From contig JBJFGS010000025.1 in assembly GCA_051892935.1 (NCBI GenBank), forward strand, positions 80,813 to 144,812: DNA of 64,000 nucleotides, read 5' to 3'. The DNA is from Candidatus Coprovivens sp. GTDB taxonomy: Bacteria; Bacillota_I; Bacilli_A; RF39; UBA660. The notes under the pieces were generated by a model, which saw only the letters and a program-made list of their open reading frames with translations, ran no database searches and was not told where the DNA came from. A program made the translations under genes and the position numbers. Below are positions 19,633 to 35,880 of this stretch, one piece after another; the first letter of the stretch is position 1, and the number at the start of each line of letters is the position of its first letter.

Positions 19633-19845
19633 TTCAGTAGTCTTATCCTCATCATGTTCATCTTCATATAAATCTAAATAATCATTTATAGTTTCTTTAA
19701 TCTTATTAGCTTCCTCTTCATCCTTAGCATTAGATAGTAAAAAATCTAAATAAGTCGTTTTTTCACAAAAAGTTAAATCAGGATTAGTAAGAGTACTATC
19801 TTTCATAACTTCAGAAACATTTTCTAATTCTTCATTTTCATTCAT
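19630..19845 (-). CDS. small highly acidic protein (~71 aa)
   Basis: Asp/Glu-rich ORF whose 5' end overlaps the tcdA stop. Start taken at the second ATG (19845) behind GGAAGTGG. Function unknown. Confidence 0.4.
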   Translation of the reverse strand: MNENEELENVSEVMKDSTLTNPDLTFCEKTTYLDFLLSNAKDEEEANKIKETINDYLDLYEDEHDEDKTTE

Positions 19846-20545
19846 GATAACCACTTCCATTATTAATTATATCATTAAAAACATAACTTGCGATACAAAA
19901 ACCAGCAGCATTAGGCACAAAACTTACAGAACCAGGAGTTCTAGACTGAATCTTCCTAGGTAATTCTTGAGAACACAAAACAGGTAATTTATACTTAATG
20001 CCATTATCTCTCATCATCTTACGAATAACTTTAGCAACAGGATCATTCTGCGTTTTCCATATATTAGTAATCTCTAATTTAGTAGGATCAACTCTATTAC
20101 CAGTACCCATACTACTAATAATTCTTATATTATATTGTAAAGCTTTCTTTATTAATAATAACTTTGTTGACATAGTATCACAACAATCAATAATATAATC
20201 AAACTTAGAATAATCTAAAACGTCAATATTAGCTTCATTTAAAAACATTTCATAAGAATCAACACTTATATCATGATTAATCAATTTAGCTCTTAAAGAA
20301 GCTTCATTTACTTTAGAACAACCTATATTATTAATATTACACAATAATTGTCTATTTAAATTAGATTTACTAAATACATCACCATCTACTATAGTTAATC
20401 TCTTAATCCCCATTCTAACTAAAGCTTCAAAACAAGCCCCACCTACTCCACCAACACCAACAATTAAAATATTACTATTACAAAAAGCATTCAGCTCATC
20501 ATCACTAAAAAGTAATTTACAACGTTCCAACATAAAATCACCCAA
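19838..20545 (-). CDS. tcdA: tRNA threonylcarbamoyladenosine dehydratase (ThiF/MoeB-fold, TcdA/CsdL-like)
   Basis: ILIVGVGGVGGACFEALVRMGIKRLTIVDGDVFSKSNLNRQ dinucleotide-binding E1-like motif, 235 aa. Confidence 0.8.
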   Translation of the reverse strand: MGDFMLERCKLLFSDDELNAFCNSNILIVGVGGVGGACFEALVRMGIKRLTIVDGDVFSKSNLNRQLLCNINNIGCSKVNEASLRAKLINHDISVDSYEMFLNEANIDVLDYSKFDYIIDCCDTMSTKLLLIKKALQYNIRIISSMGTGNRVDPTKLEITNIWKTQNDPVAKVIRKMMRDNGIKYKLPVLCSQELPRKIQSRTPGSVSFVPNAAGFCIASYVFNDIINNGSGYHE

Positions 20546-20569
20546 TAAAGTATATCATATTTTAAAACA

Positions 20570-20747
20570 CAAAAAAACTCAAGGGATACCTACCTGTGAT
20601 AAAAAACCTGCACTAAACAGGTGGGCATCACATGAACTGCTTTAGGATCCCTACACTTAAAAAGCAAGGTCTTCAACACCACAGTCAATTAGATTCCCAA
20701 TAAATCACTTACTCGGTTTTTATGAAAAGTAAGCACTTACCTTGAGT
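20570..20747 (-). ncRNA. Candidate structured RNA element (~175 nt) closed by an 8-bp long-range stem and followed by a U-run; identity unknown
   Basis: Minus strand: ACUCAAGG...(internal hairpins CUUACU/AGUAAG and ACCUG/CAGGU)...CCUUGAGU-UUUUU. Locally GC-richer than its surroundings. Sits between the HerA-like gene stop and the tcdA start. Confidence 0.35.
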
Positions 20748-20806
20748 AATTAAAGTATAACATAAAAAAAGGAATAATACTAGTACTATTCACTTCCTTT
20801 ACACAT

Positions 20807-22813
20807 TTACCCAACAGGTGGAATAAAATTAGGTTTAATTGTTCCATTATTACTAACTTGACCATTTGAAGAAACATTCGGCATCATCATATCTGGTTTA
20901 GAATTATCATAAAAATTAGTAATAACTTGAGATTGAACTTCGTTAGTAGGCTGAGAAACAACATTACCTGTATCATTAGCAGATTTTGCATTTACCTGAG
21001 AAACAGCTACACCTCCACCACTCTGTTGATTACCAGAATTATTAGAATTAGCAGCCGTTCCATGAACTTTCCAACAATTATTAACATCACATGAATTAGA
21101 ATTAGGTGCAGGGTTAGGCATTTCCATTTTTATAACCATTGGTAGCTTAAATGCTCCACCAAATCCAACACAATTACCTGGCTGTAAAATTTTCTGCTTT
21201 TCAATAACATCAGCAGAAATATTAGGTAACATCGTTCTAATATATTCAATATCCTTAGGATGTGTCATTTTAAATATTAAGAAATTACTACATTGAGCAA
21301 TAACTGTTTCTGATATTTCTACAGGTCTTTGCGAAATTATATTAAGTAAAACTCCATACTTACGACCTTCTTTAGCAATTCTATCAAATATATTATATCC
21401 AATTAAGAAAACATCTGCATCCTTTTGAACATATCTATGAGCTTCTTCCAAAAACAAATGAAACGGAATTTGTGCTCTTTGTTTTCTAGTCTTACAAAAA
21501 TCAAAGAATATTCTAGCAATAATTTTAACAATAATCTTCGCTTGAGTATCATCAATATCTTCCAAATTAATATTAATAACTTGTGCTTTCTTATTACCAA
21601 CAGCAACTAACGAAGCAATATATGTTTCATAAGAAATATAAGTATCACATTTATATATATTAGCAATTTTACTATTTATCAAAGAATTTAATCTAACTTT
21701 TAATAACATAGAATCATCATATAATTGTTCATTACTTTGGAAACCTTCACTTATTAAAGTAAACTCTAAAGCCGCAGCAAAATCTCTCATTGAATAAAAA
21801 GCATTAACTGGTTCTTCAGTCATTTCCAAATCTTCATCAATATGTTTTAAAATATAATCAGTAATTAAAACAGATTCTCCAAAATTACCATTACTATCTA
21901 TTTCAAAACACTCAGATAACGTTCTAGTATAACCCAATCCTTGAATAACACTATCAAAATTAAAATCGTTAGTATGGCATACTTCTAATACCTTAAATAT
22001 TTCATTTTTCTTATTAGCAGTAATTTGATTACTATATAAAATAGCAATTAATGCTTTCGCTATTAAATGATCTTTATATCTATTAGCTACTTCATCATCT
22101 TTACTAAATATTCTAGTTAACTTTAAAGACCTTTCTATGATAGGAATTTGACTATGTTTATCTGCTTGTAACATAATAGTTAAATCATCCATGTTTAATA
22201 AATGAAAAGGAATCTTTAATTCGTAATCAGATTCTTCTTGAATATTAGTTGTAATAAATTTATAACTATAATTAGGATTAATCTTACCTAAATCTCTAAA
22301 AGCAGTCTTATATTCACCATAAGCATCAAAAATGAAAATATTAGCATTATAAGAAACTAAATTAGGATTAGAAAAGATATTTTGAACTAATCTTGCAACC
22401 CCACATGACTTACCTGAACCAGTATTTCCAAATACTGCCATATGATTAGCAAATAGATTATTAATATCAGCAAAAACATCATAATCAGTATAAATAGAGC
22501 TTCTTCCTAATTTAAATGTTGTCTCATCATAAACCCCAACAATAGCACTAAGTTCTTGATCATTAATAGTTCTTATTTTACTAGATAAAACAGGCTTTCT
22601 AATAACACCTGATACATATCTCCCATTCATAAATTCCCCAAGAAATCTTATTTTAATTATTTCATCAGTAACTTCTTCTACTTCACCCAAAATAGCTTGA
22701 TTTGGAGCTTCAAAAACTACATGGACATTCATTAAATCTCCCATTTCTTCAGCTTTAGCTATAGTAGTAACGTGAGCTACGTTTCCAGAAATAAATTTAA
22801 TATTACCAAACAT
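20807..22813 (-). CDS. HerA/FtsK-type P-loop ATPase (DUF87-like) with a disordered Asn/Ser/Gly/Gln-rich C-terminal tail
   Basis: Walker A AVFGNTGSGKSCG. HerA-type Walker B HLFLEEAHRYV. N-terminal beta-rich region preceding the P-loop. Start at ATG 22813 behind AGAGGTG. Confidence 0.75.
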   Translation of the reverse strand: MFGNIKFISGNVAHVTTIAKAEEMGDLMNVHVVFEAPNQAILGEVEEVTDEIIKIRFLGEFMNGRYVSGVIRKPVLSSKIRTINDQELSAIVGVYDETTFKLGRSSIYTDYDVFADINNLFANHMAVFGNTGSGKSCGVARLVQNIFSNPNLVSYNANIFIFDAYGEYKTAFRDLGKINPNYSYKFITTNIQEESDYELKIPFHLLNMDDLTIMLQADKHSQIPIIERSLKLTRIFSKDDEVANRYKDHLIAKALIAILYSNQITANKKNEIFKVLEVCHTNDFNFDSVIQGLGYTRTLSECFEIDSNGNFGESVLITDYILKHIDEDLEMTEEPVNAFYSMRDFAAALEFTLISEGFQSNEQLYDDSMLLKVRLNSLINSKIANIYKCDTYISYETYIASLVAVGNKKAQVININLEDIDDTQAKIIVKIIARIFFDFCKTRKQRAQIPFHLFLEEAHRYVQKDADVFLIGYNIFDRIAKEGRKYGVLLNIISQRPVEISETVIAQCSNFLIFKMTHPKDIEYIRTMLPNISADVIEKQKILQPGNCVGFGGAFKLPMVIKMEMPNPAPNSNSCDVNNCWKVHGTAANSNNSGNQQSGGGVAVSQVNAKSANDTGNVVSQPTNEVQSQVITNFYDNSKPDMMMPNVSSNGQVSNNGTIKPNFIPPVG

Positions 22814-22892
22814 AACCAACACCTCTTTTATTATATACAACTATATCTTAACACAAAACAAAAATAAATTAAATAAAAAAGAACTATTTTTC

Positions 22893-33010: not shown

Positions 33011-34378
33011 TTAATATTCGCAATTTCCTGGAGTTCTTGGATAAGGAATAACATCTCTTATATTTTCAACACCAGTTAGATATATAAGTAATCTTTCAAA
33101 TCCCATTCCAAACCCAGAATGAATACATCCTCCAAATTTTCTTAAATTTAGGTACCAATCCATACCATCAGTTGCCATACCTAATTCATTCATTCTATTA
33201 ACTAATTTATCATAATTTTCTTCTCTTTGTGAACCGCCCATTAATTCACCAGCACCAGGTACTTCTAAATCAACAGCAGCTACTGTTTTACCATCATCAT
33301 TTTGTTTCATATAGAATGCCTTAATATCTTTAGGCCAATTTTTTATAAATACCGGTCCATTAAAATACTCAGTAATATATTTTTCGTGTTCCTTAGCAAT
33401 ATCTTCCCCATATTCAGGTTCAAATTCCCATTTAACATCAGCTTCTTTAAGAATCTTAATTACTTCATCATGATCAATTCTTACAAATGAACTATTTACT
33501 AAATTAGTTAATTTTTCTTTCAATCCCTTTTCAACAAATTGATCAAAGAAATCTATTTCCAAGGAAGCATTATCAAGTACATATTGAACAACATACTTAA
33601 GCATATCCTCCATAACATCCATATCACCATTTAAATCAGTAAATGCCATTTCAGGCTCAATCATCCAAAATTCATTTGCATGCGTTTTAGTATTAGAATT
33701 TTCAGCTCTAAAAGTCGGACCAAATGTATAAGTCTTTTTATAAGCTAAAGCAAATGTTTCAGCTTCAAGTTGACCACTAACAGTTAAATTAGCCATCTTA
33801 CCAAAGAAATCCTTTGAATAATCAGGTTTACCATTAACTCTTTCTAAATCCAAAGTAGTAACTTGAAACATTTCTCCTGCTCCTTCACAATCACTAGCAG
33901 TAATAAGAGGTGCATGAAAATACACATAATTTCTTTCTTGAAAATATTTATGTATAGCATAAGCAGCAATACTTCTAACTCTAAATACTGCTTGAAAAAG
34001 ATTAGTTCTAGGTCTTAAATAAGCTTGTTCTCTTAAAAATTCTCTAGTATGTCTCTTAGGTTGAATAGGATAATCAGCAGGACAATCTCCTAACAAAGTT
34101 ACAACACTAGCTTTTAATTCAACATCTTGATTACCAGAACTTTCAACTAATATCCCTTTAACTTCAATAGCACAACCTACTAACATTTTTTGTATATCTA
34201 AAAAATTATCAAGTCCATTATCATAAACAACTTGTAAATGTTGTTGTGTAGTACCATCACTAAAATCAATAAAACCAAATTCCTTTTGCTTACGATGATT
34301 TCTTATCCATCCCTGAATAATAACTTCATCTCCAATATGAGCATTATTAAATAAATCTTTTAAATCCATAATATTCAT
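33011..34378 (-). CDS. asnS: Asparagine--tRNA ligase
   Basis: 455-aa class IIb synthetase, GAGELMGGSQREE and YPRTPG C-terminus typical of AsnRS. Confidence 0.75.
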   Translation of the reverse strand: MNIMDLKDLFNNAHIGDEVIIQGWIRNHRKQKEFGFIDFSDGTTQQHLQVVYDNGLDNFLDIQKMLVGCAIEVKGILVESSGNQDVELKASVVTLLGDCPADYPIQPKRHTREFLREQAYLRPRTNLFQAVFRVRSIAAYAIHKYFQERNYVYFHAPLITASDCEGAGEMFQVTTLDLERVNGKPDYSKDFFGKMANLTVSGQLEAETFALAYKKTYTFGPTFRAENSNTKTHANEFWMIEPEMAFTDLNGDMDVMEDMLKYVVQYVLDNASLEIDFFDQFVEKGLKEKLTNLVNSSFVRIDHDEVIKILKEADVKWEFEPEYGEDIAKEHEKYITEYFNGPVFIKNWPKDIKAFYMKQNDDGKTVAAVDLEVPGAGELMGGSQREENYDKLVNRMNELGMATDGMDWYLNLRKFGGCIHSGFGMGFERLLIYLTGVENIRDVIPYPRTPGNCEY

Positions 34379-34380
34379 CC

Positions 34381-35649
34381 CTATCTACAATTTATATCTA
34401 AATAATCATCAATCTCTGCTTCTTTAACCATTGTTACTTCCTTAGTATGATTATCTTTAACTTGAATTTCTCCACCTACTAAATCTTCACTATTAAGTAT
34501 TACTAAAAATTTTGCATTTAATCTATCTGCCTGTTTAAATTGACCTTTTAAAGCTCTTCCCATATATTCAGTTTCAACACGTAATCCTTGTAATCTTAAA
34601 TCTTGCGTTAAAGCCATCGCATACTCTTTTTCAGTATCATTTACATATAAAATAAATGCATCTAACTCATTATTAATAGGTACTTCAATATTTTCTTTAT
34701 CCAAAGCCATAACAAGCCTACCCAGTCCACAAGCAAATCCAATACCAGGTGTAGATGGACCTCCTAAATTACTAACCAAAGTATCATATCTACCACCACC
34801 AGCTAAGACATTATTAGAACCAAAATCCTTAACTGTAGCTTCAATTTCAAATACAGTATGACAATAATAATCTAATCCTCTAACTATTTTAGGATCAACT
34901 TCATAATCAATATCTAAAACATCTAAATAATTTTGAACATCCATAAATCTATTTTTAGATTCTTCATTTAAGTAATCTAACATTACTGGAGCATTCTTAA
35001 TTATGTCATTTTCAGCATCAAATTTACAATCTAAGATACGTAATGGATTCTTTTTTAATCTCTCATTACAATCAGGACACAATTCACTTATATGAGGCTC
35101 AAAATAATCAATTAAAGCGTTTCTATAATTATCTCTAGATAGAGTATCACCTAAACTATTAATTTTAACTTTTATACCTTTTAACCCCAATAATTTAAAA
35201 ATATTAACAGCAACAGAAATAACTTCTGCATCAATAGCGGGATCATCACTACCAAGAACCTCAACCCCAAACTGCGTAAGTTCTCTATCTCTTCCAGATT
35301 GTGGTCTCTCATATCGATACATTGTTCCATTATAGTATAGTTTTACAGGTTGTATAGTATCTCCATACATTTTATTTTCAATAAAACTTCTAACAACACC
35401 AGCTGTTCCTTCTGGTCTTAAAGTCATATTTCTATCCCCACGATCAACAAAATCATAAGTTTCTTTAGACACTATATCTGTTGTATCTCCAACACCTCTA
35501 TGAAACAATTCCGTACTTTCAAAAATAGGTGTTCTAATCATTCCATAATTATATCTTTCCATTACTTCATCAACAACACGACTAACATATTGCCATTTTT
35601 TCATTTGTTCACCATACAAATCATAAGTTCCCTTAGGTTTAGTTATCAT
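34381..35649 (-). CDS. hisS: Histidine--tRNA ligase
   Basis: Class IIa HisRS motifs (RPEGT, GGRYD), C-terminal anticodon-binding domain. Start set at ATG 35649 behind GGAGGAG (the track ORF is extended upstream into the leader). Confidence 0.9.
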   Translation of the reverse strand: MITKPKGTYDLYGEQMKKWQYVSRVVDEVMERYNYGMIRTPIFESTELFHRGVGDTTDIVSKETYDFVDRGDRNMTLRPEGTAGVVRSFIENKMYGDTIQPVKLYYNGTMYRYERPQSGRDRELTQFGVEVLGSDDPAIDAEVISVAVNIFKLLGLKGIKVKINSLGDTLSRDNYRNALIDYFEPHISELCPDCNERLKKNPLRILDCKFDAENDIIKNAPVMLDYLNEESKNRFMDVQNYLDVLDIDYEVDPKIVRGLDYYCHTVFEIEATVKDFGSNNVLAGGGRYDTLVSNLGGPSTPGIGFACGLGRLVMALDKENIEVPINNELDAFILYVNDTEKEYAMALTQDLRLQGLRVETEYMGRALKGQFKQADRLNAKFLVILNSEDLVGGEIQVKDNHTKEVTMVKEAEIDDYLDINCR

Positions 35650-35654
35650 TATAT

Positions 35655-35880
35655 CTCCTCCATAAATAAAAAAGGTACCTAAATAACGTAAGGACGAAAA
35701 ATTCCGCGGTGCCACCTTACTTTACTTAGGTACTCTCATATTTTTATTTTATCGCTCTTAATGCGTTCTTAATATCAGAAAGTTGTTTTTCATATATAAT
35801 CCAATAAGGCATTTCCACCATATAGCCCTCTCTTTTATTTTCAATATATACTACTCGTCTTTCAATAAGAAAAGTCTAAA
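35655..35880 (-). promoter_or_regulatory. T-box riboswitch leader upstream of hisS (controls hisS-asnS-aspS-gatCAB)
   Basis: Minus strand contains the T-box consensus AAGGUGGCACCGCGG (35704-35716), nested in a terminator AGUACCUAAGUAAAGUAAGG...CCUUACGUUAUUUAGGUACC-UUUUUU (35668-35735). AGAGAG element in stem I. Leader ~230 nt. Confidence 0.7.

Follow-up and report, generated by a model that had tools for sequence, protein, structure and literature searches.

What kind of RNA, if any, is encoded in the intergenic span that separates the stop codon of a HerA-like ATPase gene (20807) from the ATG of tcdA (20533) on the minus strand is the question raised by this locus, which lies in a window of 64 kb (positions 1-64000, the whole stretch of DNA that was analysed). 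A first-pass annotation had described there a separate structured RNA some 175 nt long, too big for a plain terminator, for which a small RNA, a cis-regulatory leader, or a 3'-UTR element or functional part of the HerA-like operon were offered as readings, and in which no match to 6S RNA was seen by eye. The coordinates of this element turned out to be nearly exact, and the small RNA was the right choice on the evidence of the Rfam family RF00013. The dismissal of 6S RNA was mistaken, given a full-length RF00013 match, the canonical architecture and the synteny of Bacillus subtilis 6S-1. With a probability that we put at about 0.93, positions 20571-20747 of the minus strand are a 6S RNA gene (SsrS) and the orthologue of the B. 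subtilis bsrA/6S-1 locus. It is an additional copy of a known family that scores below threshold, and the view of 6S RNA is left unchanged by it.

A structured element below the Rfam cut-off

All of the landmarks by which the element had been recognised are present on the minus strand. The 8-bp closing stem is formed by ACTCAAGG (20747-20740) and its exact complement CCTTGAGT (20584-20577), which enclose 155 nt; an 8-mer found twice is not unusual by itself, as at least two matches were obtained in 25 of 100 shuffles. CUUACU (20733-20728) and AGUAAG (20713-20708), the ACCUG/CAGGU hairpin (20622-20606) and the GGGAUCC core (about 20651-20645) were likewise located, and a U-run at 20577-20571 leaves 37 nt to the tcdA ATG, in agreement with the tail that had been placed about 35 nt before this gene. 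The enrichment in GC was also borne out, with values of 0.36-0.41 in the element versus 0.26-0.29 in the flanks. Calculation of the fold, one of the checks that the first-pass annotation had suggested, gave a minimum free energy of -54.6 kcal/mol for the minus strand with z = -3.47, a stability reached by 1 of 200 shuffles, and a weaker fold for the plus strand (z = -2.52). Many of the pairs are G-U, which fixes the minus strand as the transcribed one and rules out the plus strand in this role.

An Rfam scan had been suggested as well, and its outcome differs with the mode in which it is run. At gathering thresholds the default scan of the whole window returned 0 hits, whereas a match to RF00013 (6S/SsrS), visible only in E-value mode, covers 20571-20752 of the minus strand and all model positions (1-187 of 187) of a family that includes Escherichia coli SsrS. 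The score of 41.3 bits is 5 bits below the curated gathering cut-off of 46.4 bits, and the E-value amounts to 4.3e-7 for the region and to 6e-5 for the whole 64-kb window, the latter with all 4227 Rfam families scanned. The motifs of 6S RNA fall in register: the 5' bubble contains CCGA, GGGA...CCCACCUG...CAGGUU surrounds the bubble, and GGAUCCUAAA belongs to the apical stem.

RF00013 is one of only two Rfam matches in the 64 kb, the second being a T-box leader (RF00230, 35687-35869, minus strand) directly upstream of hisS (34381-35715), which scores 70.7 bits against a gathering cut-off of 93 and is absent from the default Rfam scan of this window of 25.9% GC. Because the T-box match also falls under its cut-off, the data suggest that the composition of the window depresses its Rfam scores. 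With both RNAs under the gathering cut-offs, default pipelines report no structured RNA in the 64 kb, and the value of the locus for annotation is that 6S RNA can be recovered in AT-rich uncultured gut Bacilli when a sensitive covariance search is used together with the synteny of tcdA, rarA and aspS. In Weissella (Lactobacillales), sub-threshold 6S copies have been recovered only via synteny. A 6S-2 paralogue was sought in the window with an nhmmer profile and no second copy was found, and neither tRNA nor tmRNA genes were found in the whole 64 kb.

Fold and conservation among related genomes

A search with TcdA retrieved 11 species-level relatives, which comprise uncultured Bacilli MAGs, Candidatus Coprovivens (GTDB order RF39, family CAG-1000) and one MAG labelled Erysipelotrichaceae. 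In all 11 loci, RF00013 is matched over its full length just before tcdA and on the same strand, and six of these matches exceed the cut-off. A metagenome scan with the 5'-bubble pattern AAAACCNNGTAAGTGATT returned 120 stretches, nearly all of them chance occurrences, which were then filtered by a profile search that added five full-length copies (one above the cut-off) and one partial copy. Seven of the 16 relatives score at least 46.4 bits (55.5, 49.5, 48.3, 48.2, 47.5, 47.3 and 46.9), and the other nine range from 32 to 45.7 bits. The arrangement HerA-like gene, RNA, tcdA is common to all recovered copies, tcdA being found downstream of the RNA in each of the 16 relatives that reach that far. 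When 12 genomes are compared in pairs, the RNA is identical at 82% of positions on average and the intergenic DNA on its two sides at 52% and 46%. The two strands of the bubble are the most conserved parts of the RNA, with 97% for the 5' side including its A-run and 93% for the other. The z-score of the fold, the difference in identity between the RNA and its flanks, and the RF00013 E-values together mark the element as more than a product of chance.

The RNA folds into the canonical 6S shape, with a closing stem, a large central bubble that bears a hairpin on its 3' side, and an apical stem. The Rfam consensus structure, defined without the sequences of the window or of its relatives, was projected onto an alignment of 12 sequences and gave 13 compensatory pairs, as compared with 1-4 in slid controls and with 0 of 500 shuffles. 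RNAalifold applied to the same number of sequences yielded a structure with 95.9% of cells paired and 16 compensatory pairs, which consists of an extended closing stem, an A6:U6 helix, a large bulge on the 5' side with a hairpin facing it, and an apical stem interrupted by internal loops; after refinement on 17 sequences, 95.3% of cells are paired and compensatory changes are seen in 18 pairs, versus 1-7 in slid controls. Such an alignment of homologous loci had been proposed in the first-pass annotation, for which a lack of conservation or covariation would have counted against the element, and both were found among the relatives.

In the closing stem, a U-A pair is replaced by C-G in L007 and L009 and one base is lost on each strand in L117, a matched pair deletion, and the extension of this stem holds four compensatory pairs. 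Helices 4-7 are 94-100% paired, with compensatory changes in 7 of 7 pairs of helix 5 and in 3 of 6 pairs of helix 4, and insertions of 20-35 nt in L021 and L117 are confined to the terminal (apical) loop. The ACCUGU/GCAGGU hairpin is 100% paired in the 17 sequences and is nearly invariant, so that it gives no covariation signal.

From the conserved promoter to the U-tract, an RNA of about 177 nt is predicted, set against some 180-200 nt for the 6S family, whose predicted ends are read from the sequence, with the 5' end at A20747, 7 nt past the -10 hexamer, and the 3' end within 20577-20571. The 5' strand of the closing stem (20721-20747) consists of ACUCAAGG, an internal loop and GUGCUUACUU, and pairs with 20577-20600; the 3' arm at 20584-20577 is CCUUGAGU, the exact complement of ACUCAAGG. 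The 5' strand is followed by an A-run and the 5' side of the central bubble, AAAACCGAGUAAGUGAUUUAUU (20699-20720), the predicted pRNA template, and by the covarying apical stem with its internal loops, its terminal loop and GGGAUCC (20623-20698). The hairpin ACCUGU-loop-GCAGGU (20606-20622) sits on the bubble's 3' side and faces the 5' bulge. The remainder (20571-20605) contains a U-run that pairs with the A-run, the 3' strand of the closing stem AUCACAGGUAGGUAUCCCUUGAGU, and the terminal U-tract, at which transcription is presumed to terminate. A U-tract stands directly after the closing stem in 15 of the 17 sequences, being interrupted in L011 and absent in L040.

Predicted pRNA and proposed mode of action

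The bubble contains a candidate template for the short product RNA (pRNA) of 6S RNAs. Alignment with the B. subtilis 6S-1 pRNA GUUCGGUCAAAACU places the predicted start opposite U20711, so that the template CAUAAAAACCGAG-U20711-A would give the pRNA 5'-ACUCGGUUUUUAUG. Conserved hallmarks of 6S pRNAs are GG at positions 4/5 or 5/6 and an A that flanks the start, and the predicted product has GG at positions 5/6 (retained in the variants L011 and L021), with A20710 as the flanking base. UCGGU at positions 3-7 is shared with the 6S-1 pRNA in addition to these two features. The predicted pRNA starts with A and would call for ATP initiation, unlike the G of 6S-1 and as in 6S-2 and E. coli; with B. 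subtilis polymerase, G-initiated pRNA templates are efficient and ATP-initiated ones inefficient. AA at positions 9/10, which is present in Lactobacillales, is not part of the predicted product.

By analogy with characterised 6S RNAs, the bubble would mimic an open promoter and the RNA would fill the active-site cleft of the sigma-A RNA polymerase holoenzyme, a sequestration expected to damp housekeeping transcription under nutrient scarcity. Upon nutrient upshift, the polymerase would copy the 5' bubble from the predicted start opposite U20711, and the resulting pRNA would pair stably with the 6S RNA and refold it, whereby the polymerase would be set free. Modelling offers a possible refolding step, in which GUGAU (20708-20704) may pair with AUCAC (20600-20596) and collapse the bubble. 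This pairing appears in folds constrained by the pRNA, with the template blocked, it is possible in 11 of 12 sequences, and it resembles the central bulge collapse helix of B. subtilis 6S-1; both arms are invariant, so the alignment neither supports nor opposes it. As another pRNA-induced hairpin, pairing of ACCUGU on the 3' side of the bubble with ACAGGU (20597-20592) was considered and rejected, for the second arm varies without compensation when inspected by eye (ACAAGU, ACUAGU, ACUCGU).

The CUUACU/AGUAAG hairpin pointed out in the first-pass annotation can pair in 97% of cells. It was discarded, since it shows one-sided wobble changes only and is mutually exclusive with a helix that has true compensatory changes. 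A local 5' hairpin, GCUUAC/GUAAGU (20734-20729 with 20712-20707, minus strand), can form in all 17 sequences, and its changes are restricted to the 5' arm and are all wobble-compatible. This hairpin, which would mask U20711 as the predicted start of the pRNA and competes with the covarying extension of the closing stem, may represent an alternative conformer.

Synteny, promoters and competing readings

On the minus strand, the window holds in order the T-box, hisS, a class IIb synthetase gene, aspS, gatA, gatB, three unassigned genes, the HerA-like ATPase gene, the 6S gene and tcdA, and gpsA and rarA lie on the strand opposite to 6S. The tcdA gene (19838-20533), the conserved downstream neighbour, is the orthologue of B. 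subtilis yrvM; its product matches Pfam ThiF with 119 bits, and its best NCBIfam model is TcdA with 107.5 bits against a cut-off of 304. In B. subtilis, bsrA, the gene for 6S-1, is flanked by aspS and yrvM, and rarA is found close to the 6S locus across Lactobacillales as well as at B. subtilis 6S-1. Because aspS, yrvM/tcdA and rarA are shared in this way, the locus is orthologous to that of 6S-1, from which it differs by additional genes inserted between aspS and the RNA. The linkage of 6S and tcdA in B. subtilis thereby extends to these uncultured gut Bacilli.

The likeness to B. subtilis 6S-1 comprises the closing stem, the 5' central bulge, the hairpin opposite the bulge and the apical stem. 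It extends to the genomic position, since both genes come after the hisS-aspS region, immediately precede yrvM/tcdA and have rarA in their vicinity. In contrast to 6S-1, the RNA of the window is far more AT-rich, it has the A6:U6 helix beside the bubble, its U-run follows the closing stem directly with no separate terminator hairpin, and gatAB, two or three unknown genes and the HerA-like ATPase gene intervene between aspS and the RNA. With the 6S RNAs of Lactobacillales it shares the canonical structure, including the hairpin on the 3' side of the bubble, and a location close to rarA; the neighbours of the gene are rarA and uspA in Lactobacillales, and the HerA-like gene and tcdA here. It has no ygfA-type neighbour, unlike the 6S genes of Gammaproteobacteria.

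Candidate signals for independent transcription lie on both sides of the gene. A putative extended -10 element, TGtTATACT (20754-20762), stands 7 nt upstream of the closing stem, and the longer consensus TATGnTATAMT (core TGnTATAMT) recurs with little or no variation, and with unchanged spacing to the stem, in all 16 sequences compared; no conserved -35 element goes with it. This box is located downstream of a terminator-like hairpin at the end of the HerA-like gene, GGAAGUGAAUAGUAC...GUAUUAUUCC followed by U7 (20764-20797, -13.2 kcal/mol), and a similar hairpin occurs in L001, L002, L007, L009, L077, L040 and L021. From these signals, the 6S gene is predicted to be a transcription unit of its own, which begins at an extended -10 promoter and has a U-tract after the closing stem. 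A second extended -10 box, TGaTATACT (20549-20557), precedes the Shine-Dalgarno sequence GGGTGA and the ATG of tcdA at 20533. Most loci have such a TGnTATAMT box before tcdA; it is absent in L005, L006, L008 and L021 (4 of 16 relatives), where the gap between the 6S U-tract and the start codon is only about 20-25 nt long. Lacking such a box in these four, tcdA appears to depend there on read-through from the 6S promoter. Some transcripts probably run past the U-tract into tcdA, and such read-through is plausible in both the window and B. subtilis, in which 6S-1 extended into yrvM sequences has been found bound to the sigma-A holoenzyme.

These signals also bear on the other readings of the element. 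A cis-acting 5' leader of tcdA, of riboswitch or attenuator type, whose stem and U-tract would stop or permit transcription, would account for the fact that the element immediately precedes tcdA, in the same orientation, in each of the 17 genomes, for the stem and U-run at its end, and for the read-through needed in the four relatives whose short gap contains no box. It is nevertheless very improbable, as the 6S model matches from end to end, no riboswitch or leader family of Rfam matches the element, the second extended -10 box stands downstream of the U-tract in most loci including the window, and B. subtilis 6S-1 also reads through into yrvM, yet is a bona fide 6S RNA. The leader function put forward in the first-pass annotation is retained as a secondary one at most, for those tcdA genes that are without a promoter-like box. 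Still less credible is an assignment to the HerA-like operon upstream, in which the RNA would be a component or would serve in the 3' UTR or as a terminator; membership in this operon had also been considered initially and is not supported. The HerA-like gene does lie upstream in every related locus, even in the distant partial copy L046, but the hairpin with U7 and the independent conserved promoter intervene between its stop codon and the RNA, the Rfam match accounts for the whole element, and the 6S-tcdA-rarA linkage is also present in B. subtilis, where the flanks of 6S-1 are aspS and yrvM.

It is equally hard to believe that the element is a different, lineage-specific small RNA whose likeness to 6S arose by accident in an AT-rich genome. 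The sub-threshold score of the window copy would fit such a coincidence; against it are the E-value of 6e-5 over all families and 64 kb, the seven orthologues that reach the cut-off, the covariation on an independently defined Rfam structure, and a synteny that matches bsrA. For the 6S gene, two further and speculative proposals are that the GCUUAC/GUAAGU hairpin would be a switch that gates pRNA initiation, and that 6S would be an obligatory 5' part of the tcdA transcript wherever tcdA has no promoter. Both are unlikely; if the second were true, sequestration of RNA polymerase would be coupled to ct6A tRNA modification.

The genes upstream of the RNA present several features in their own right. 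The HerA-like ATPase (20807-22840, minus strand) keeps its place in the 16 closest related genomes with a protein identity of 81-92%, and the value is 61% in the more distant partial copy L046. The range of 81-92% is similar to that of RarA (83-94%) and much higher than that of TcdA (57-84%), and such conservation is unusual for a defence-type HerA. Its best PADLOC HerA model reaches 367 bits, and the NCBIfam anti-phage HerA models remain far under their cut-offs. Between hisS and aspS, a second class IIb aminoacyl-tRNA synthetase gene (33011-34378, minus strand) encodes an AsnRS- or LysRS-like protein with a tRNA-synt_2 domain and an OB anticodon-binding domain, without a GAD domain, and gatA and gatB are located just downstream of aspS. 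The segment 22893-27929 (minus strand), between gatB and the HerA-like gene, encodes three soluble proteins of 609, 767 and 267 aa, for which no Pfam or PADLOC match was found. The 609- and 767-aa proteins have the N-terminal motif DDINDLLLCYSD in common and look like paralogues. The block from gatB to the HerA-like gene varies among the relatives, as it measures only about 2.2 kb in L049, and in L040 a homologue of the 267-aa protein is encoded directly upstream of the HerA-like gene.
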